Positions 9,963 through 63,934 of a stretch of DNA of 64,000 bases are shown piece after piece. A program made the translations under genes and the position numbers. The stretch lies in the NCBI GenBank assembly GCA_040285855.1, contig JAUFOQ010000004.1:992001-1056000 (forward strand). The letters run 5' to 3'. The DNA comes from Eukaryota sp. GEM-RC1 (lineage: Eukaryota). Each line of letters starts with the position of its first letter. Position 1 is the first letter of the stretch. The notes under the pieces are model-generated. The model was given only the letters and a program-made list of their open reading frames with translations, was not told the DNA's origin and did not search any database.

Positions 9963-11564
9963 CAGTCAAACCTCTATAATTTCTCCCCCTCTATAATTTC
10001 TCGGTCCCAAACATCCTGAACTTTGGGATGACTTGTGACTATGTTTACCACGACATTGTGTATCCATATACATCATAGAGTCACAGTGAAAGTTTTGTTT
10101 GATCACTTTTTTCTCAAAATAAACATCGCGTACAACTGTTGTATCAGCTTCAACATATGACATCCTCATCGTGTGTGTAGCTTTGTCACAAACAACCGAT
10201 AACATCGAATCTTCAGCCAACCTTAGTCAACTATGTCTTCTATATCCTTCATGACATCATTGTGTAATGCTCAAGTACATGTAGTGTTTTGTTTCGTTAT
10301 ACATGACCCTTATACATAAATTTTGTCAACATAGATTTTGCCTGCATCATTCATCTCTATCATATGACCAAAAACAGCTCTTTATCTCTTCAGCAGAAGA
10401 GATCACTTTGCTTTTATTCTGCTCAAGAACCAAACCCTACTACTTATCAACTGATTCAATGGGTACTTGACACCTATGGCTTCAAACTACATCGAACAAC
10501 TGTTGGAAAGATTCTCAAATCCTGTGATCACTTACGTGACGATTCTCTTTTCTCTTCAAGTGGTGTTAGAAAGCGTATCAGACCAGTGAAATTTCCAGCG
10601 TTTGACGCTTCTTTATACGAATGGTTTATGACATTTCAAGACCGAATTGTGACTGATGCTGTTATTCTTGACAAAGCAACAACATTTCGCATCAGTTTTA
10701 ACATTTCTGATGAAGAACTGAAATTAACCAACGGCTGGTTGGAGAAATTTAAGAAAAGATACAATATTCAATCCTTAAGAATAAGCGGAGAAGCGGCTTC
10801 TGCTGATAAGACAGGAGTTTTAGATGATTCAGAAGTAGGACAAAGTAGATTCATAAATAGATTTATTGTATAAAACTATCTAGTGTTGCACGAAACGTTT
10901 CGGCGTTTCCAACGTTTCCGTTTCCGAGACGTTTCAGAAACGTTAATGACTCACAGGAAACGCATCCAAAACGTGAATAAACGTTTCCAAAACTTGATGA
11001 TTCCCGTAAATTTGTTGAAAAGTATGTTCCGTTTATTGAACTTTAATACTCTTTATATGAATGTTACCAATAAAATTGGATGCACAGTAGCACACCTCTA
11101 AAACGAAAACACTTACAGGCATAACTGTAGTTTGTGATCCAATTTTCTCTCTCAATTTCATAACATTGAGAAGTACAATCCATAACAACATGTATAACAC
11201 CTGCACGTACAACAAAGAACTGATAAAAATCAATTATACCAGTTAAACGGAATTTTTTCGAAGACAGAATGTTGGTGGAGAAAAATTGAGATGTAGAACC
11301 ATAAAATGACGTTTCGGAAACGGAAACGCGATTCCGAAACGTAAACGCGTTTCCACAAGAATTTTCACACGTTTCGTGCAACACTAAAACTATCTGTGTT
11401 GGGCATGTAGGAAAAGCTATTGCTGATGAAGAAGAAACACAGTTACTGATGGAAGGCTTTGTGATGGAAGAGCGAAAACACGTCCAACAAGCGTGTTTTT
11501 CCATAATTTCTCACCCTCTATAATTCCTCGGTCCCAAAGGTGAGAAATTATAGAGGTTTGACTG
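9963..11564 (+). mobile_element. pogo/Tigger deletion derivative
   Basis: TIRs CAGTCAAACCTCTATAATTTCTC / GAGAAATTATAGAGGTTTGACTG flanked by TA; ORF 10364-10873 encodes CENP-B-type HTH (GWLEKFKKRYNI...GEAASAD); no DDE domain seen. Confidence 0.9.
10881..11386. mobile_element. hAT-type MITE nested in the Tigger element
   Basis: TIR TAGTGTTGCACGAAACG / CGTTTCGTGCAACACTA; perfect 8-bp TSD AAACTATC. Confidence 0.92.
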
Positions 11565-12314
11565 TACTAAGAATTCACAATTACCCAACTCCAACAGTTC
11601 TAAATCTGATATTCTACTATTAGATAGATATATGAGATGTGCTATCAGGCTTTGTTCGACTATCAATCATTAGTGATTTGAAATCACAAATGAAATTTCA
11701 TTTAATGCTACTGAGATAAAAACACTAATCTTCTTCTTCTTGGGCATCAGCATTTAGAATATAGTATTGGAATACTGCACTGGGATGTTACTAAATACTT
11801 CGACAAAATCATGAAATTTGTCCTTTAAGTATTGAGAGCTGTTTTGTGGGCTATATCAATATCTGTCAACGCTTTTTCAACCCTACTGGATTTGGAACCC
11901 AATGCAATCGACCTTCAGTTTCTGGACGGTACATGTGTTTTATTGATACCTAGTGTTCTGTATTTTTCCAATGATGATTGGTATTTTTCCTGTTTTTGTA
12001 ACAAAATCTTCAAAAGTTTCGATATCACTGGACTTGTATACCAATTCCAATATACAAAGATTTCCCATTGAAATAAGAAAATGGTACCACCTATTTAGAC
12101 TGGAAAAAGACTCATTGTATTCCATATCATCTCGGATCGTATTAACAGTGAAGTCGTTCTTAATTGATTTGAAAATCAAATGGCTGGGCATATGATTTTT
12201 GGTATTGGTATATATTACCGTTGAAAAATGTTTGAGATCATGTTGGCAATGGTCATTTAGTTCTTCGACATATCGTAAGAAGATCGTAAGTGGACTTAAA
12301 TGTATGGATACGAT

Positions 12315-13290
12315 CTAATTTTGCTTGATCAGTTTCATATGAAATAGAAGTATCGGGAATGAAGAGCTCCGGCTTTTCATTTGAGACAGTAAATAATGCT
12401 TGTATATGTTGAAATTCTTTTTCCACCAGTCTGTTGCTTCAGTTTCAACAGTTTCTTCCATGGTGTATCTTAACACTTCGGTCTGAGCACTCGCTTTTTC
12501 TTCAGAAGTTTTAACAGTTCGTCGTTTACCTAATGCGGTTTTCATTAGCCCTGTTTGGGGTTTTTCCTTCTCTTTAGGCTTGTTCTCCTCGTCAGGCTTC
12601 ATTTTTTTGGCGGCTTCTTCCTTACATTTCAATTGCGTTTTCAATTGTTCCAGAAAACATTTGTTTTCCAATTCGCTCAATGCTGAGTGATTCAACTTAA
12701 TGCGAGGATCCAAGAACGTGGCTAAAATGTTTTCGAATCTCCAGAAATCATCAATAATATCATTAAGCAGGTTATCTCCTACATAATGGAGATAATCCTT
12801 TTTTATTCTATCAAGTGATCACCTTGATCACGTGATCACTTCAAGTAGTCAAGAACAGTAGTTACTTATCCCTCATTAACCGAATGAGGGATAAGAAGAG
12901 GTGGAAAACTCCTTTGTTGCTCAAAAATCTATCGAAAAAAGGATTCAAAAGGTCCAGGAAAACTTCGATATCAGAGTAATCAGAAATTTTTAAATCATTC
13001 AAAGTTTCTGCACCAACACGTGTTCGTTCAAGCACAATGCTCAATTCCACGTACCTTTTGATCGTTAAGTAATTAGAATTCCATCTAATTTCTACATCAA
13101 CTGGAATTGTATTGGTACGATTTAAATCTTCAGCTAAGAACATCGTTCGAAAAGCTTCCACGATAATCGATGAGGTGTGAAGTTCTTCGCAAAAGTCCGA
13201 AGTTTTGGAATCGAGTCATTTTTGAATTTAAAACCTCAATTCCTGCTTTAACAATTAAATTAAGAGTATGCGGAACACAACCTCTATGAA
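12315..13290 (-). mobile_element. Degraded hAT transposase
   Basis: CVPHTLNLIVKAG, DVEIRWNSNY, ATFLDPRIK and DWWKKN fragments across frames. Confidence 0.8.
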
Positions 13291-14274: not shown

Positions 14275-15486
14275 CTACAACAACCGATCCCACAGATGTC
14301 CAGACACGGATGAAACCTTGATGATGGCACCTTCAAATTGAGTGTCATCAAAGTAAAAGGCATCATTGTAATTATCCTTGGAGTTGAATGCTACACGCCA
14401 AGAGTTATTAAATCCATCATGAACAATATAATCAGCTTCAAAGAACTCTTTAAGAGAACTTTCAGATGTATTAGAAGGAATTCCAGTGATTGCTACAACA
14501 TATGGAAAATCAGAAGGTGTAGAGATATTTGACTGATCCTCAAGAGGAGGTTTCTTTTCACGAATTGGAGTAACGCAATCAACTCCCACGTCATCAGCAA
14601 CTGATTCAGTAATAGAGCTCACTGACGTGGAATCAACAGAAAGAGCAGTCAGTCGATCAGAAGTTGTTGAGTAGAGTGACAAGAGGTCTTCATGTAAGGA
14701 AGTAAGAACAGAGGTTTGTTGTTTGATAGAGTTAGTAATACAAGAAACCAACGCATCTGTAATTGTTGGTTTAAAAACAACAGGTTTTCCTAGTTTTAAA
14801 TTATTCATAATGGTCGCTGAATCTAACATGGTAGAATCCAATAGACATGTTAGATTCTCCTTCATTTGAGTACATCCTTCAACAACTTTTTCCACAGTTG
14901 ACTGGGTGGATTGAGAAACCTTGTCTATTGCAACTGCTAACTCCTGATTGATAGAGTTGATGTTTTGTTCAATGGAGGCTCTGCCTTGATCAAACGGTAA
15001 TAACTTCTTCTTGTGTTGGTCGTGGTCACCTAGAAAAGCACAAGTAGAGCAGAGAGCAACAGAACAAGAGGTACAGAAGAGATCAAAGGACTTCATTGGA
15101 TGGGAGGGACATTTAGGAACTAAAGAAGCGTGTTTCTTTTCCAAGGGGATAGCTACATGGGATCGGAAGACTTTCAAGGAATGAACGGTCTTGAAGCATT
15201 TATCACACAAGTCAATGTTACATTCAGCACAAAAGCTTGTTGCAGTTGCCTCTTCACATTCACTACAGACAGATTGGTGTTGACCAGCTAGAAAGGCTTC
15301 CACAGCTTCCTTGAGCTTGTAGTTGGTGCATAACCGGGACTTATCAACTTCAGCTCTGCAGACAGGACAGTCTTTGTGAGATTTAAGCCACTCCAAAAGA
15401 TGAGACATACAAAAGGTGTGACCACACCAGGTTGTTACGGGATTTTGAAGAAGTTCTAGGCAAATATCACAGAGGTAGTGGGACAT
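14275..15486 (-). CDS. TRIM-like RING/B-box/B-box/coiled-coil protein with RRM-like C-terminus
   Basis: CDIC..CGHTFC..CPVC RING, B-box1 (CSEC..CAEC..CDKC..H..H), B-box2 (CPSH..CTSC..CSTC..H..H), coiled coil, C-terminal VAITGIP..LKEFF..VAF. Confidence 0.85.
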   Translation of the reverse strand: MSHYLCDICLELLQNPVTTWCGHTFCMSHLLEWLKSHKDCPVCRAEVDKSRLCTNYKLKEAVEAFLAGQHQSVCSECEEATATSFCAECNIDLCDKCFKTVHSLKVFRSHVAIPLEKKHASLVPKCPSHPMKSFDLFCTSCSVALCSTCAFLGDHDQHKKKLLPFDQGRASIEQNINSINQELAVAIDKVSQSTQSTVEKVVEGCTQMKENLTCLLDSTMLDSATIMNNLKLGKPVVFKPTITDALVSCITNSIKQQTSVLTSLHEDLLSLYSTTSDRLTALSVDSTSVSSITESVADDVGVDCVTPIREKKPPLEDQSNISTPSDFPYVVAITGIPSNTSESSLKEFFEADYIVHDGFNNSWRVAFNSKDNYNDAFYFDDTQFEGAIIKVSSVSGHLWDRLL

Positions 15487-17578: not shown

Positions 17579-18790
17579 GGAAAAATGTCAAAAACACTCA
17601 TGTCCCAAATCTATATTTCATAACCACTCAAATGAAATTTGATATTACAAAAAACACTCATGAACCTTTTCTGATATACATACTTCACAAACAATGACTT
17701 TACTTATCTCCCTTCATGATTCACTCCGTCAATCTCCAACATACTTGCTCGGGCTTGAGAATCAATCACGAGTCCCTCACAGCATCAAAGATTGTTGCAA
17801 TTACCCCAGTTGTAACAGCAATTCAGCATGATCTACAAACTACAGCAGCCACCATTAGGACAGTTGTTGCATCAAATGGAGCTACGGTTAACTATCAGAA
17901 TGCTTACCGAGCTCAGAAGAAGATTAAAAAGGACTTGTATGGAAGCTTTGAAGAAGCTCATGATGAAATTCAAGCTTACGTTCGGGAACTGCGTGCGTGC
18001 TACAATGATCCTATCATTGATCTAGATGTTACAGATGGCAGATAAGATGGCAGATAAGATGGCGTAAAACTATGATAAAAATGGGGGAAAGACTAGAAAA
18101 GGCAAAGAAAATGCCCTGTATTGTAAAAACAAGTGGCAGATGATGTAAGATCTTTATTAGGTAATGCAACAGCATTTACCATTGTTCCTGCTCAGAACCA
18201 ACAGTTTGAGGTTCAGGGAGCAGATTCTGCTATTGTTGATGAGATGACGAAGAGCTGTTCATGTGGAAAGTGGCAAGAAGACAAAGTCCCGTGTGTACAT
18301 GCTGTTGCTGTTGCTGTGTTCATGAGAAAACCTCTAGAAGAGTTGATTGGTGAGGAATATCATCAATCAACTCTGTTAAAATGCTATGGTACTTTGTTAC
18401 CTGCTATTAGAGCCAGAAACAGCTGGATGGCTACTGAAGATGAAGTTCAAGAGCAAGTCGCGCCTCCAGTAGAAAAACGAGGAAGAGGGAAGGCCACGTA
18501 CAAGAAGACTTACCAGCATTGGTGAACCAGAGATGAACAAAGGACGAGGAAAGTACGGATGCAGTATCTGCAAGAAGAAGGGACATACAATGAAGACATG
18601 TCCCAACAAGTAGTAGATGGCATATCGATAGATAGATGAGATAATAGTAATCAAAATATAGTAAAACAATGACTTGGTTCTATTGATATCAATATTATAG
18701 TGGTCTAATGAGTGTTTTTTGTAATATCAAATTCCATTTGAGTGGTTATGAAATATAGATTTGGGACATGAGTGTTTTTGAATTTTACCC
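17579..18790 (+). mobile_element. Mutator (MULE) deletion derivative
   Basis: About 80-bp TIRs, 9-bp TSD TAAAATCAA; SWIM finger CSCGKWQEDKVPCVH and knuckle CSICKKKGHTMKTC; DDE core absent. Confidence 0.92.
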
Positions 18791-29325: not shown

Positions 29326-30270
29326 ATGTCTCGTGGAAACACAATCGGTGATCTACTTCACCGTCTCGTCCCTAAGGAAGCGACCAAGCCATCCGTTTGT
29401 TATTTTTATACTATTTATCACAGACTCGCAGCGAACCCTACATTTACCAGCATCTGCCCTATTTCAAGCATATGAAAGATCGTGAGGCACTTTTTCCCCC
29501 AAAGCCCCTTTTCATTGAAACTCAACCTGAGATCCGTGCCGATCATCGTCAAATTCTCATCGATTGGCTCAGTGAGGTAGCCGTTGAATACCGTTTGCCC
29601 GAAAATGCTGTCTATCTCGCCGTCAATTATTGCGATCGATTTCTTTCACAGTCTCATGTTCCCAGAGATAAATTGCAACTCGTTGGAGTCACTGCCCTTT
29701 TCATTGCCAAGTATGCGATCTACTATATCTCATTCTAGCAAATTTGTGACTGCTGATCACCGTGCTGTTACCGACTATTCTTACATCTGTGACAACTCTT
29801 TCACTGTGAACCAGATCATCAAAACTGAATCTGCCATGGTCCGTGCGTTGGGCTTTGTTCTTGCTTCTCCTACCATTTTCCAGTTCCTCATGGAGTATTT
29901 CTCCTTGTCCACTTTGCAATTGACCAAGAAAGCTAAGATTCTTGCCCTTTATTTGTGTGAATTGTCTCTCCAGGACTATACCTGCGTTTCTTGGAAACCA
30001 TCTCAAATCGCATATGCCGCAATCTGCTTATCACGTTTCATTTGTGGTGATTCTGCCTGGAACGCTTCGTTCATTGATGTTGATGGATACGACTACAATA
30101 CAGTTGGGGACTGTATTCGTCGTTTAAAAGAGATTTTCGAAACTGCAAAAACTCACAATTTGAGAGCAGTTCGTGAGAAGTTTTGTACTACTGAGTACCG
30201 CCCTTTCAATGTTGTTACTGGAATCGCAGAGTCTGTTCCTTATTTAAATTGTGATGCACTCCCTTGTTAA
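29326..30270 (+). CDS. A/B-type cyclin, 3 exons
   Basis: RQILIDWLSEV..YLAVNYCDRFLS..KLQLVGVTALFIA cyclin box; removing GT-AG introns 29395-29423 (29 nt) and 29711-29738 (28 nt) restores one frame. Confidence 0.9.
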
Positions 30271-44946: not shown

Positions 44947-46502
44947 TTAAAAACAAATTCTACAAAGTGATCGTTGGGTTTGGTTGTCGATTGAGTTTTC
45001 ATCTAAACTGACCATAGAAATTGATGAATTAACCTTCAAAGCCTCTGCAATTGATACAGCACCATCGTTTCCAATAGAGTTGTAACCAAGATCGATCGTG
45101 GCCACTGACGTTGACACTTTTATAACCTCTGCAATTGCTATTGCACCGACATTTCCGATAGAATTCTCACCTAAATTAAGCCTAACAACAGATGAATTGA
45201 TTTTTAATGCATCTACAAGCGCTGAGGCACCTTCATCTCCTATGCTGTTCTTCCATAGGTAAATCGTAGAAACAGACGAATTGACTTTTAACGCCTCTGC
45301 GATTGCTATGGCACCTTCATCTCCAATAGAGTTGTTCCATAGATTTATATTAGTAACAGACGAATTGACTTTTAACGCTTCTGCAATTGCTATGGCACCT
45401 TCGTCTCCAATAGAGTATCCACCTATATTGACTTTCGAAACCTCGTTTTGGATCATTTGATCATAGAAATTCTTCAACTCTAAACTCAGTTCAGACCAAT
45501 TAATAGAAGCTTTCTTGTCCTCAACAGCTTCCTCAAAACAAGATTCACTTTCAACAGATTTGACTGTTGGAGTAACGCAATCAACTCCCACGTCATCAGC
45601 AACTGATTCAGTAATAGAGCTCACTGACGTGGAATCAACAGAAAGAGCTGTCAGTCGATCAGAAGTTGTTGAGTAGAGTGACAAAAGGTCTTCATGTAAG
45701 GAAGTAAGAACAGAGGTTTGTTGTTGGATAGAGTTAGTAATACAAGAAACCAACGTGTCTGTAATTGTTGGTTTAAAAACAACAGGTTTTCCAAGTTTGA
45801 AATCATTCATAATGGTAGTTGAATCTAACATGGTAGAATCCAATAGACATGTTAGATTCTCTTTCATTTGAGTACATCCATCAACAACTTTTTCCACAGT
45901 TGACTGGGTGGATTGAGAAACCTTTTCTATTGCAACTGCTAACTCCTGATTGATAGAGTTGATATTTTGTTCAATGGAGGCTCTGCCTTGATCAAACGGT
46001 AATAACTTCTTCTTGTGTTGGTCGTGGTCACCAAGCATGACACAAGTAGAGCAGAGAGCAACAGAACAAGAAGTACAAAAAAAGCTCGAAAGGTTTCAAA
46101 GGATGACAGGGACATTTGGGAACTAACACCGAATGTTTCTTGTCTAAAGGGATGGGTTGATGAGATCGAAAAAGCTTTATGCGATGAATTGCTGTGAAGC
46201 AATCGATGCATAAATCGGCTTCACATTCAGCACAATAGCATGTTTCAAGAATTGATGAATGCAGCATCTTCACACTCATTGCAAACAGATTGGCGTTGAT
46301 CAGTTACAAGGGCTTCCACAGTTTTTTTGAGCTTGTAGTTTGTGCAAAGTTTGGATTTGTCTATAACAACTTCGCAGATGGGACACACACTGTGAGATTG
46401 TAACCACTCTGAAATATGCGGCAAGCAGAAAGAATGACCACAGAAGGTTGTGACGGGATTTTGAAGTGTTTCTGAGCAAATGTTACAAGTAGGGTTGATC
46501 AT
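44947..46502 (-). pseudogene. TRIM-like RING/B-box/coiled-coil protein with C-terminal RI-like LRRs
   Basis: Paralogue of 14275-15486; about five IGDEGAIAIAEALKVNSS repeats; frame breaks near 46250 (about 13-nt insertion) and 46080 (T7 run). Confidence 0.8.
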
Positions 46503-52746: not shown

Positions 52747-53760
52747 CAGTGATGCGAAAAAATTAATTTAAATTAAATTATCAATTCGACAGGCCAACAA
52801 TTAATTAATTTTAATTTTACACGCCAACAATTAATTAATTTTAATTTTACACGCCAACAATTAATTAATTTTAATTCTTCAGACCAACAATTAATTAATT
52901 GCAATTAATTACAATTAATTCTTTATTACCATACGACAAAAATCAACATACTATCATTCTGAATCGACATCTATAACAAGCTCGGCCGAATTTAATCCTG
53001 TCGTCTGATGAGGGTTCTTACTCACAATTGATTTGACTAAATCCAAGTTCCAAGAATCAGTGTTGTATATAAGCAACAATTGTTTCTCTAACGTTTTTGA
53101 TTGTAAACGTCCTCTCAGTTGCCCTATAAGTAGATAAATAAGAAGAAATACCAAGAGTTAATTTTGCACGACTGAATGGTCTTTCCACCTGGTTAGAAGT
53201 TGATGGAATAAATGATAAGTCTAAGTATTCCGAAGCAGTGTTTTTCTGCATCAGTGAGTTCTCTCTCATATCCTTCAAGTATCTTGATTACTCCATTTTC
53301 AAAGTCGGGGGACTCAACGATTGGTGATGCCGGGCTATAACTTGTGTAGGATCGCATAGCTGGATATTCCTCATGTAGAACGTCAAACATTCTCTTGGCC
53401 TTGTGTAGAGGAACTTCTGAAACTTGCAACTTCTTTGTAATTGAGTTCAGCTGGTCAAATTTTGAAGTCATTTCATCAATCATTTCTGTTTCTGTTCGGT
53501 CAGGCAGATGTTGTTTCACTGCAATCGGGTTGTGGTTCAACAAAGGTAAAAAAGAACAAGGCTATCTCTTTGGGAGTTGGAGAAGACGACATAAGGTGGA
53601 GAAACGGGAATTGTAAAATTAATTCTAGTAATTGCCGTTAATTAATTATAATTCTAAGCGGTTAGAATTAATTAATTATAATTCTAAGCGGCTAGAATTA
53701 ATTAATTCTCAGGGAATTAATTCAATTAATTATAATTAAATTAATTTTTTCGCATCACTG
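52747..53760 (-). mobile_element. hAT deletion derivative
   Basis: TIR CAGTGATGCGAAAAAATTAATTTAA / TTAAATTAATTTTTTCGCATCACTG; TSD ACACAAAC/ACACAGAC; transposase remnant ITKKLQ..DFENGVIKI..PSTSNQVERPFSRAK; tandem subterminal repeats. Confidence 0.92.
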
Positions 53761-59190: not shown

Positions 59191-60027
59191 CAGGGACTGT
59201 CAAAAATATATTGCACTTTTGCAATAATTACAATCTTGTGTATTGTGTATTGCAATACTGTATTGCAGCCTCAATTTGTATGGCAATATATTGCAATAAT
59301 TTCGGTTTTGAACAATACTTTTAGACCAATGTTTTTCTATTACTTGAAAGTTCTTTAGCAACATACTACACCAGTGTTTGGTTTGTGTACAATTGGAAGT
59401 CCATACTACTAGTAGTATCTGTCTAGTTCTGACTAGTAAATGTAAACCGAATAACATTCCTCACATAATCTTACACGACTCTTCCTTCTAGACCTGTTCG
59501 AAAACAGATGGCAAAAGCCTACTATTCAACTATCTCCCGGAACTCAACTCAATCAATGTAATTCTGTGATAGCAAATGACGTGAGTAGTGATGATGATGA
59601 TGATGATGAAGAAGTTGTTGAACGCCCTGGACCTGTTTCCTCTGTTCAAGATGTCTTAACTTGAATGACAAAATTCAATTAAATTCCTTCCCAGCAACAT
59701 GAAAATTGTTGTGAAACGACTGTTCAGTAGAGCTCGAATGGTGCAAGGGTTGTCAAAACACTACTTATCTAATCGAAGACTTGCCAATCAACTATATCTC
59801 TCTGTAAATAGAGAGTTGTGGGATATTAGTTTGGTTCGTTCGTAAGACTGTTAATCAGAAACTGCTCAACTTAGAAATCACCTAATGATGTTCTTATGGT
59901 TTATCGGTGGATTTTAGACAATAAATGATCTCATCAACAATATTTATATTGCTACCAATTATTGCAATACTGTATTGCAAATCTTTTGACCCTGCAATAT
60001 ATTGCAATATATTTTTGACAGTCCCTG
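59191..60027. mobile_element. hAT-type MITE
   Basis: TIR CAGGGACTGTCAAAAATATATTGCA / TGCAATATATTTTTGACAGTCCCTG; TSD CCATAAAC/CCGTAAAA. Confidence 0.85.
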
Positions 60028-60084: not shown

Positions 60085-60485
60085 TGGTTGCACGAAACGT
60101 TAATTTCTTTGAGGAAACACATCCGAAACGTCAGTAAACGTTTCCAAAACTTGATACTTACTGTTAATGTGTTGAAAAGTCTATATCACTTGTTGTTCTT
60201 TAATGATCGGTCTTTATATGAATGTCATTAATAAAATTGTGTGCAAAGTTTCAAACAGTTAAAACCAAAACTCTTACCAGTATAACTTTGTTTGTGAACT
60301 ATTTTTCTCTCTCAATGTCATTTCATTGGGGAATGGAGTCCCATAACAACATGTATAGCACCTGAATACACTGGAAAGAACTCATAAAATTCAAACATAT
60401 CTGTTTACAATATATTTTGGAAGAGATAAGGGAGGTGGCAGAAGATTGAGATGTAGAACAACAAAATGACGATTCGGAAACGGAC
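60085..60485. repeat. Diverged, truncated copy of the 10881-11386 MITE
   Basis: Colinear similarity (GTTGCACGAAACGTT..AAACGTTTCCAAAACTTGAT..ATTGAGATGTAGAAC..CGGAAACGG). Confidence 0.8.
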
Positions 60486-60759
60486 AACATTGAAGTTGCT
60501 CTTAAATCTGCATGTAACGATGTCTTCTTTCACTTTTATTGCTACACATAATAACCATAAGGTTATTACAAGAACACCAAATGTATTAAGTTACCTGCGG
60601 TCGCCCTGATTTTTCTTTTCCTTGTTCTTTTCTTTCTTTGAATCATCTTCTAACTGTTCTATCTTATTCCTAAATTTTGGTTTTACAATATATTCATCTT
60701 TACTGCCATTTCAATCATATTCTTGCCATCCTTTCAAAATCGATCTCACAGTCAACGGC

Positions 60760-60783
60760 GACATCGAACCTAATCCAGGACCT
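60760..60783 (+). other. 2A-like StopGo (ribosome skipping) motif
   Basis: GAC ATC GAA CCT AAT CCA GGA CCT = DIEPNPGP, preceded by DLTVNG; exact match to D(V/I)ExNPG|P. Confidence 0.85.
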
Positions 60784-63022
60784 CCAAAACATTTGAAAGA
60801 AAAAAGAAAAAATTAACCAATGCAACAGGATATCACGCTTTCGTCTATTTTGGTGCTGGTGAAAGATATTATTGGATTAAGTGGGAATACCCCATAACTT
60901 TCAAAAAGACTTATAACGGTATTGCTCAATCCAGGTTTGCAAATAAGAAGGAACGTCCTCAAGCTGTCTCTTGGGTAATGAAAATTCTTGCAAGATATGA
61001 ACCGACAATTGATTTGCAAAATCCTGATTGGGAAGATTTTATTAAGAAGTTTGGAGAATCACCTCCACCTGATCACGATTCTCTTTCCCGCCAATATTCA
61101 ATTGTAGGATCTCGAGATCCATTAGTTAGAATGGACAGATATGTTCAACGAAAGATTGTTCCCTTTTGGTCCGAAGTGACACCTGAGAGCTTACCTGAAA
61201 GTATGAAAATCGAGTTAAATTCATTTTTTAAATCAAAGGGCAGCTTGTCTTTCTTTTGTTTTTGGTCAAAACTTTTGCAGAAGAAGAACAACTCAAAGTC
61301 GACGCTTAAAAGAAGTGATAAAAAGACCACAATCAGTTGTTTTTTCGTTCCAAAATGTTTACAAAATGTTTACTTGGTGCTGACTACAATCAGAACAGAA
61401 ATAATACAGGTGAAACCCAAATTGAGGAATTCAAAATATCTAAAAGCAGGAAAATTGAACTCCTGCATCAAGTGTGTCCACCTGATTCTTATGCTGAAGA
61501 CTCGATCAAACTTATTCTCGATGAAGTAACAGCTACTTGCTGCCTTGGCTTGAAAAACCTGAACAAACAAGATTTCTTGATGTGTTATTCTTTACAACCA
61601 TCTGTTGAACATGAACTGGGATTTATGACCAATCTTCGAATTATTCTTGCTGATCGAGTAAAAAATCCCTCTGGCCGAAACAACATTGATGAGTATTCAA
61701 CTTTCTTAAATTCAGTTGATAATCTTCCAATGTATGAACTGAAAGTTGATCCCGATTTTAAAACAATTTTTAGCAACGTTCATCCTTGTGAACATGTTGG
61801 TGCTTCTGATGTTTTCGTGATTGGATCAAAAGCTGATCTACCCAATCAAAATCGCAATTTTAACTTTGATATTGTCGAAAAATTCCATCGATTGAAGAAG
61901 ACAACTCCTTGGTCAAAGATGTCTGTCTTCACAAAGAATCCAATTTGTCCCCTTACAGTATTGTTTGCAGTAAAAATTGGATCAGGCAGCCACTTTTGTC
62001 AGATTTCAGCCATGGTAGATTTTGAAATACCATTACGTGTCAGATATCAGTTAGGAATTTAGATAGTAATAGAAGTTTGAACATTGCAGGTAAAATTAAA
62101 CTTCTGTGGGAAACTAACGACCATGTTGAAGAATTGTTTAGAGATAGATATTATATTGATGTTCTCTTCCCACCGTCTTTTATTGAAAACAAAAGTGTTT
62201 ATTGACCCTGGAAAAACAGATTTACTCTATTTTTGTTCAGAGAAAGTAAATAGGCCATTTCCCGAAAAAAAAGCACGAGAAAGAAGAGATAAAGAATACG
62301 AGTGGCTAAGATTGACAGAGACAGAATGGTCCAGATGGTCAAGGGTTCATCAAAAGTTTAGAAGGGGAAAGAAAAAAGAATTCATTCTCCAAGATGGAAA
62401 AACAGTTGAACAAGAAGAGTCAACATTATCCAAAGAAAATTCAAAGTCAACCGTGTATGAAACCTTCTATGACTATGTGGGTTCCAAACTTACAGTTATT
62501 GAATCAACATTTGATTACCGCTGTTTGATGATATGGCGCATTCAAAAGTGCAAAGATACGTCCATATTCAAAAAACAGAAAGTAAGTTGTTGAAAAATAT
62601 GACTGCAAAAGGATGGAATAAAGATGACTGTGTATTGATGTTTGGTGACAATGGTAATAAGAGGCAGAACCTAAAACACCTCCGATCAAGTAGAGGTGTT
62701 GGTCGGAGAAAACTTCTTTAAGAGAAATGGTTACAATATTGTTCTTGTAGATGAGAGTTACACATCTTCAAAGTGTCCTACTTGTTGGAGACCAGTCAAA
62801 GTGTTTATGGAAGTTGACAATCTAAGACCCAAAACACAAGAAGAGAAGCCTACGTTGAAGTTACATGCGTTGTTGAGATGTCAATCTGAGAAGTGCAGAG
62901 AAGAATGTGATGACAAAGACAAAGTGTGGAATCGTAACAAGTTAGCATGTATCAACATCAAGACTATTGTGGAGCATCATTTGGAGCGGGGTCTAGGAGT
63001 TAGACCCAGTTATTTGTCATAG
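60781..63022 (+). CDS. Fanzor1-type (TnpB-related) RNA-guided nuclease, frameshifted
   Basis: RuvC-I FIDPGKTDLLY (D at 62204), MFGD, RuvC-II LVDESYTSSKCPTC (E at 62753), zinc finger CPTC..LLRCQSEKC, RuvC-III WNRNKLACINI; about 745 codons across at least 6 frame breaks. Confidence 0.88.
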
Positions 63023-63077
63023 TCATAGCCTTTATTTACTACAGTGAATCTGTAGCATTATTCATCCGGTTGTTGAA

Positions 63078-63934
63078 ATGGATTCCCTAACCTGGATTGA
63101 ATGTGTTCAACCGCTAATCATGGGTATTGTTGACGGTGATGAAGATCTCTCTGCCTTTCTTAAGAAACATCTGCATCATACTCAAGAACTCGCTTTTCTC
63201 CCTCTTTTTCTTTGTCACAGACTTCCCTTCTTTCATTGTAATCGAAAACACTTTCTAGCAATCATTCTTGGTCTTCCTTATCACTATCGTGAAGGTGCGA
63301 CCTTCAGTTTTGCCACTCTTAAGTCCAAGTACAGAGGACTCATACGTTTTTAAAACGATCATTTAATCCATTATATTCAGATGTTCCGTTTGAACTTCGT
63401 GAGAAAATGAAGAAGTTCAACACTCAATCTGTTGATCATTTCCTATCACGAATATCTTATACTGACTCCTTTGGAAATCTATCCGTTGAGATCATATTTC
63501 GATGGTTTTTCCCTAACTTTGATGGTTCTACTCCACAACCCTCACTTGAAGAACTTACCGCAATTAATTATCTACTTAAAAGCATTAAGATGAGGACTGT
63601 ATTCAGTTTGCAAGTCCGTATTGATCGTTTTATTGGTGCTTTTATTTTGCTTTTGAAAGAACCGGTGAACAGAAAGGACGAAGTAGAGAATCAAACTACT
63701 GAAAGTGAACTGTTCAAAAGGTGGGAAGACCTTGTTAATGACCGTAACGGTAGCAGAGAATTGTTTTATGATCAAATTATTAATTTCTTGAATAAATTCG
63801 AGCATGCTATAGTGACCAGGACAGAAGCTTTTTGTTTTATGAAAGAGAGCTATGAATTACTTGTAGAGATTAGAGCTGGTTCAAGTACTTCTCATGGTTC
63901 AGCCACTGGTCTCAGCCAGAATGCTTCAGCTTAG
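63078..63934 (+). CDS. Hypothetical ~285-aa helical protein immediately downstream of Fanzor
   Basis: ORFs 63078-63353 and 63407-63934 join if one T is added in CGTTTTTAAAA near 63350. Confidence 0.55.

Follow-up and report, generated by a model that had tools for sequence, protein, structure and literature searches.

Near the end of the window (the whole stretch of DNA that was analysed, 64,000 nucleotides), the forward strand carries the remains of a Fanzor1 gene, adjoined upstream by part of another gene. The features of this locus are the following:

60742..62059, forward strand: upstream neighbour, consisting of a 2A-like motif and the N-terminal part of a helicase-type gene, cut at 62059 (relative P0033)
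62062..62178, forward strand: remnant of the Fanzor1 REC region (tblastn against P0026)
62178..62183, forward strand: junction of an internal deletion with a frame change; 174 codons are gone (P0026 residues 358-531, end of REC and WED)
62183..62548, forward strand: RuvC-I with its DPG (Asp codon 62204-62206) and the helices behind it; identity to both P0026 and P0022 is 94% across 136 residues
62544..62547, forward strand: frame break 1, an A run one base short (alignment with relatives)
62548..62709, forward strand: middle RuvC piece, running from VQRYVH to RGVGRR with the frame shifted; profile match E 7.7e-20
62709..62712, forward strand: frame break 2, an A run one base long (sibling P0064 is in frame throughout)
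62711..63022, forward strand: RuvC-II Glu, C4 zinc finger, RuvC-III WNRN and stop; identity to P0064 is 96% across 103 residues
62936..62938, forward strand: third catalytic position, Asn, equivalent in alignments to SpuFz1 D606 and GtFz1 N658
62989..63055, forward strand: expected place of a guide-RNA scaffold, a candidate by the SpuFz1 layout, with hairpins at 62989-63007 and 63039-63055

Two 1-nt breaks in A runs split the coding sequence of this copy into three pieces. The motifs listed in the preliminary description (DPG, DE, C4 finger and WNRN) were all found at the places given there: the RuvC-I Asp in DPG, the RuvC-II Glu in VDE (codon 62753-62755), the four zinc-finger cysteines within 62774-62896, and WNRN at 62927-62938, with AAC as the Asn codon; the stop codon is at 63020-63022. 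The last coding piece matches PpFz1 (phmmer, E 8.9e-15) and SpuFz1 (E 2.9e-7), and in the alignment its Asn stands opposite the RuvC-III Asp of both proteins. The Pfam family Cas12f1-like_TNB matches with E 2.7e-5, which falls slightly short of the curated cut-off; neither of the two upstream pieces gave a Fanzor match on its own (phmmer against solved structures). Residue numbers are PDB chain positions (1000 and 1068) minus fusion-tag offsets (394 and 410); for GtFz1 (690 residues), position 1068 becomes N658 on our assumption that the tag comprises 410 residues.

The Fanzor motif published in 2013 consists of the RuvC-I Asp, 125-275 residues, [TS][TS]xx, a C4 zinc finger and a terminal RD, as given in the sections of PMC3627910 used here, and the catalytic Glu of Fanzors is placed directly ahead of the zinc finger in those of a review (PMC13565253). 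This spacing is present in the window copy (Asp at 62204, SS at 62765, i.e., 187 codons on, Glu at 62753, cysteines at 62774-62896), and only the terminal RD reads RN. As GtFz1, an accepted active member, also reads RN, this letter of the motif is not strict.

Residues 311-357 of the relative P0026 match 62038-62178 at 74% (tblastn), true homology starting with DSNRSLN at ~62062, and the match resumes in another frame with residues 532-667 at 62183-62590. Fanzor homology ends upstream of ~62062, where the other gene adjoins the fragment. Absent from the window copy is thus its 5' part, i.e., the exonuclease of the relatives (see below), the first WED strand and the TAM-reading REC helices. The preliminary description had the feature run from 62190 to 63022; its end at the stop codon was correct, and it had missed the start of the remnant at ~62062, the 174-codon gap at 62178/62183 and the lost 5' part. 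Aligned through P0013, the deleted segment corresponds roughly to SpuFz1 residues 225-376 and includes R260, R268, R291, K312, R315, R317 and Y345, for which contacts to the heteroduplex, the TAM and the guide RNA, as well as a part in unwinding, are described in the sections of PMC10432273 used here.

A complete REC and WED lobe, present in full-length relatives, is therefore missing. Since no recognition lobe can fold, the window copy is predicted to be neither a nuclease nor a binder, and to make no working protein. At 4 of the 84 near-invariant columns, it has a residue seen in none of the aligned relatives (Tyr-to-Arg and Trp-to-Arg among the changes), a number inside the range of 0-8 in other family copies. 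Judged by its sequence, the window copy is a broken 3' fragment derived from the Fanzor1 family, ordinary debris and not a working member. The proposal that it is a decaying copy is borne out by the 5' truncation and the 174-codon deletion, and not by the Asn.

The relative of the upstream gene, P0033, is 65% identical over 61490-62059; the match ends at 62059, and an AAA_11 SF1 helicase follows (E 8.2e-7). The upstream ORFs were considered as the element's own exonuclease and rejected, as they gave no exonuclease match and P0033 is helicase-type; a profile built from six relatives found no exonuclease in the six frames of the 64-kb window. A 2A/StopGo-like motif, DLTVNGDIEPNPGP, is located at 60742-60783 (forward strand; gene 60610-62059), in front of this frame-broken, helicase-related gene, and 2A-led genes may form a larger mobile family in this group of protists. 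Downstream of the Fanzor fragment, two overlapping ORFs of 101 and 203 aa occupy 63048-63934 (forward strand), the first of them beginning 26 nt past the Fanzor stop. They have no Pfam match, and their exact sequences are absent from the protein collection searched.

In 57-64 kb, no inverted-repeat pair encloses the window copy, and neither a transposase nor an element end nor a guide RNA was found for it, the left end being lost from this copy; the earlier observation was likewise that no transposase or TIR is evident beside the gene. The one strong inverted-repeat pair within 57-64 kb, 59191-60027, was rejected as the ends of a Fanzor element because it closes before the gene and bounds a separate element. 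The latter is 837 bp long, with perfect 25-nt terminal inverted repeats that start with CAGGG; its 8-bp flanks agree at 6 of 8 positions, and we take it to resemble the non-autonomous hAT type. Elsewhere in the window there are two dispersed repeat pairs, 10937-11324 / 60094-60484 (76% identity) and 14565-15471 / 45567-46487 (84% identity; RING/B-box-looking proteins, a label given by eye), and pieces of pogo-, hAT- and MULE-type transposase-like ORFs, also recognized by eye (10307-10870, 11943-13215, 17698-18522 and 53196-53561). Searches for related loci in metagenome and viral contigs gave 348 and 124 pattern matches, respectively, none of them confirmed, and Atlas look-ups were uninformative (mixed integrase-like leads, scores 0.77).

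Could the fragment have been kept for its RNA? In S. punctatus, protein-less 'ghost' loci still provide working guide RNAs, according to the part of PMC10432273 drawn on here, and the window copy, whose 3' end is whole to the stop and 96% identical to sibling P0064, might likewise serve as a guide-RNA donor that loads an intact Fanzor from elsewhere. However, the single-sequence fold z-score of 62930-63130 is 0.36, i.e., there is no structure signal, the ORF that begins just behind the stop looks unrelated, and no element end was found; the candidate guide-RNA region has no Rfam match either. We therefore regard a guide-donor role as unlikely and treat the window copy as debris.

Protein searches found the family under the record names Eukaryota sp. 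GEM-RC1, TZLM3-RCL and TZLM1-RC. It is multi-copy and dispersed, with at least 18 GEM-RC1-, 9 TZLM3-RCL- and 2 TZLM1-RC-labelled gene models, near-identical copies among them, and therefore fits a mobile family. By their similar strain names, we take these three organisms to be Skoliomonas metamonads of PMC11316075, as far as the parts of that paper used here describe them. Given 94% identity between the window piece and GEM-RC1-labelled copies, the host probably belongs to the Skoliomonas group of metamonads.

The preliminary description had considered that the Asn might be private to the window copy, and had proposed an alignment of the family at the RuvC-III residue. The residue is covered by 10 of the 29 tallied family gene models (P0015 included) and is Asn in all ten. 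Among 1.84 billion representatives, a profile search had 2358 matches, of which the best 150 were taken; among the 148 that could be aligned, the RuvC-III residue is Asp in 126, Asn in 14 and Leu in one, with a gap in seven. A FastTree phylogeny was calculated for 152 rows (the aligned best representatives and six named copies; rows below 110 residues were omitted and the Asn column was dropped). In this tree, a single clade with support 99 unites 20 rows, 15 of them with Asn, five truncated and none with Asp, so that the Asn is a property of the whole family. Outside the Asn clade, four further Asn proteins are scattered among the 152 rows, two of them with less regular motifs. The tree shows that NRN arose several times in Fanzor1, in the large clade and in the four scattered proteins, with GtFz1 as a further, likely separate case.

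Among the rows of the Asn clade with a residue at the position, 14 of 15 keep the RuvC-I Asp and 16 of 18 the RuvC-II Glu, at pairwise identities of 31-64% (8 rows compared); one would expect a dead lineage this deep to have lost them as well. Several family copies carry additional changes in the triad (D-to-E in P0001 and P0021, E-to-K in P0016). Among the best 150 of the 2358 matches, Asn occurs together with DPG (9) or DPD (1) at RuvC-I and never with DPN, and Asp with DPN (67) or DPG (57); GtFz1 also has DPG. As kin are not independent, the pairing of Asn with DPG is only a lead.

In the intact relatives P0034 (1281 aa) and P0013 (1192 aa), an exonuclease of the family B polymerase type runs into a whole D-E-N Fanzor1, and Pfam DNA_pol_B_exo1 (PF03104) scores above the cut-off in P0013, P0017, P0034 and P0041. 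The motifs DxE, NxxxFD and YCxxD, which we take to be ExoI, ExoII and ExoIII, are present in both P0034 and P0041, which represent subfamilies that are 31% identical. The best solved matches of the exonuclease domain are Pol delta (E 5e-8); with P0041 alone, phmmer against solved structures found nothing. A profile from six exonuclease domains matches 11 of 180 fetched proteins, all of them in the Fanzor1 family, and had no match in P0037, which belongs to the Asn clade. The junction between exonuclease and Fanzor is ungapped in six of six aligned proteins, the N-terminus of SpuFz1 aligning right behind ExoIII. In these predicted eukaryotic gene models, a PolB-type 3'-5' exonuclease is thus fused N-terminally to the Fanzor in one reading frame. 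Residues 147-320 of P0013 resemble a SENP8/Ulp1-like protease (E 3e-6 to SENP8; His, Asp and Cys present), preceded by a 2A-like motif nearly identical to the one at 60742-60783; this is a single case, either a gene-model artefact or a real polyprotein. We do not claim a 2A-SENP8-protease-exonuclease-Fanzor polyprotein, as it was seen in this one model only, which lacks the ExoI present in P0034 and P0041.

A first structure model from 10 sequences had a mean pLDDT of 40 and was unusable. For P0013, with 94 sequences, AlphaFold modelled most of the Fanzor part with pLDDT 80-98, residues 1-470, the exonuclease region included, being of low confidence. The top seven Foldseek matches of this model are PpFz, SpuFz and GtFz (E 3e-30 to 2e-18), with Fanzor2 at E 6e-3, and the comparison with SpuFz1, which the preliminary description had suggested, gave a TM of 0.82. 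The family profile matches PpFz1 with E 1e-40, SpuFz1 with 2e-38 and GtFz1 with 2e-11. The resemblance to fungal-type Fanzor1 pointed out earlier is therefore real, PpFz1 and SpuFz1 being the best matches in sequence as well as in fold, and in sequence and modelled fold the family groups with Fanzor1 rather than with Fanzor2, TnpB or Cas12. Given the far greater distance of the family from GtFz1 than from PpFz1 and SpuFz1, its Asn likely arose separately from that of GtFz1.

For the function of the Asn, GtFz1 is a precedent. This enzyme has Asn as the third catalytic residue and cuts DNA; its N658D variant is less active, the D606N variant of SpuFz1 cuts better than the wild type, and D-to-N in Cas12a or TnpB brings no rise in activity (Xu et al. 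2024, PMC11423790, in the parts of the article used here). As the Asn is family-wide and shared with a cutting enzyme, intact members likely cut, by analogy with GtFz1. Against this weighs that the tolerance of D-to-N is enzyme-specific, no rise being reported for Cas12a and TnpB, that the family is nearer to PpFz1 and SpuFz1 than to GtFz1, and that several copies have additional triad changes. It was also proposed that the protein is a nuclease-dead binder, and the family could accordingly be imagined as a domesticated RNA-guided DNA binder, a eukaryotic analogue of the TldRs that perhaps brings its exonuclease to chosen sites. Asn does replace the canonical Asp in every member, no transposase is nearby, and in TnpB any change in the triad abolishes cutting, according to the available portion of a preprint (bioRxiv 10.1101/2023.11.30.569447). 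The same portion, however, defines TldRs by at least two changed triad residues, often without the zinc finger, whereas here a single residue is changed, D and E are kept in the window copy and most of the clade, and the C4 finger and the RuvC-III helix are conserved. Moreover, D-E-N Fanzor1 enzymes cut, the other two catalytic residues and the finger persist across 31-64% identity, and numerous near-identical copies exist in place of a single fixed gene. The dead-binder reading is thus not supported and very unlikely, slightly more so than the guide donor. The explanation that we prefer, and in which we have good though not full confidence, is that the window contains the damaged 3' portion of a multi-copy Fanzor1 gene with a family-wide Asn as in GtFz1, and that intact members are likely active RNA-guided nucleases, not dead binders.

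In agreement with the earlier mention of 1-nt changes in A/T runs, the two breaks lie in the A runs 62544-62547 and 62709-62712. Introns were rejected as their cause, because every GT-AG candidate would remove residues that the relatives retain; the relatives are colinear across both breaks, which are therefore not introns. Short GT-AG introns do occur in the window; one of 28 nt, at 29711, interrupts a cyclin-like gene. P0017 agrees with the middle RuvC piece at 17 of 18 residues from 62545, and break 2 is absent from P0064, the sibling with 96% identity to the last piece. A host Ca-ATPase gene in the window (~34470, forward strand) changes frame in an A run as well, with contiguous matches on both sides and nothing gained or lost, and a katanin-like host gene (~8395, reverse strand) appears to do so in a G run; the frame breaks in the window therefore call for caution. 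Both small breaks may be real lesions or assembly errors, and break 1 is most simply read as a leftover homopolymer error. A programmed ribosomal frameshift at break 1, rationing the cutting half of the protein in the GEM-RC1 lineage, would account for the shifted ending that recurs in seven of the eight GEM-RC1-labelled models reaching the site, in two subfamilies, but is most improbable, given that P0017 and eight differently labelled models carrying the motif read in frame, that other models end at scattered A/G runs, that the host Ca-ATPase gene behaves alike, that the parts of PMC11316075 used here describe the named assemblies as made from Nanopore R9 data, corrected with Illumina and containing 28-55% repeats, and that break 1 has no classical slippery heptamer.

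Going beyond the preferred explanation, Skoliomonas-type metamonads may possess a mobile Fanzor1 lineage in which D-E-N became fixed independently of GtFz1 and whose Fanzor naturally shares its chain with an active Pol-delta-like 3'-5' exonuclease, i.e., a single-chain RNA-guided cutter and end-trimmer; for this wider proposal, we see the chances as even. As part of the preferred explanation, an intact element would probably express the fused protein together with a guide RNA derived from its 3' end. Element-free sites would then be cut by the Fanzor, and repair would copy the element back (restorative homing), as shown for TnpB; the scheme follows TnpB and the review PMC13565253. Most speculatively, and guessed from the type of domain, the fused exonuclease might trim 3' ends at the cut and so prevent simple re-ligation.

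D-E-N Fanzor1 is already in print, and what looks new is the exonuclease fusion in intact relatives. Full-text literature searches found no description of such a fusion or of this Fanzor1 family, which supplements, Repbase or subscription papers could list. Term look-ups found 'Fanzor' 0 times in the main text of the genome paper PMC11316075, 'exonuclease' 0 times in PMC10530073, PMC10711439 and PMC13565253, and 'polymerase' and 'protease' 0 times in PMC3627910. With the results presented here, a false lead is removed: a Fanzor1 with NRN should not be taken for 'dead'. If the metamonad assignment holds, the range of Fanzor1 extends to metamonads, and if the fused exonuclease acts on Fanzor-made ends, it would be a natural bias on repair after RNA-guided cutting and useful for editing. 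A cutter combined with an end-trimmer, if real, would be the natural counterpart of engineered exonuclease-Cas fusions.

Compared with known systems, P0034 and P0041 share the Exo motifs with the proofreading exonuclease of family B DNA polymerases (Pol delta), but the family has Fanzor1 in the place where Pol delta has its polymerase domain. With TldRs, it has in common the scaffold of the TnpB family and an altered RuvC triad; in contrast to TldRs, which adjoin fixed partner genes, it is multi-copy, has one tolerated change and keeps the zinc finger. The fungal proteins SpuFz1 (PDB 8GKH) and PpFz1 (PDB 9CF0) show the same domain order from the WED to the C-terminal RP motif, but have NRD, and SpuFz1 also DPN at RuvC-I; SpuFz1 starts where the exonuclease of the family ends, and lies between 30-nt inverted repeats, none of which were found around the window copy. 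GtFz1 (PDB 9CER), although distant in sequence (profile E 2e-11 versus 1e-40 for PpFz1) and, in the sections of PMC11423790 used here, mentioned with no exonuclease fusion, shares DPG, the relocated E, the C4 finger and WNRN, with N658 at the aligned position. Within Fanzor1, the family is thus set apart by the fixed D-E-N site together with the fused exonuclease.
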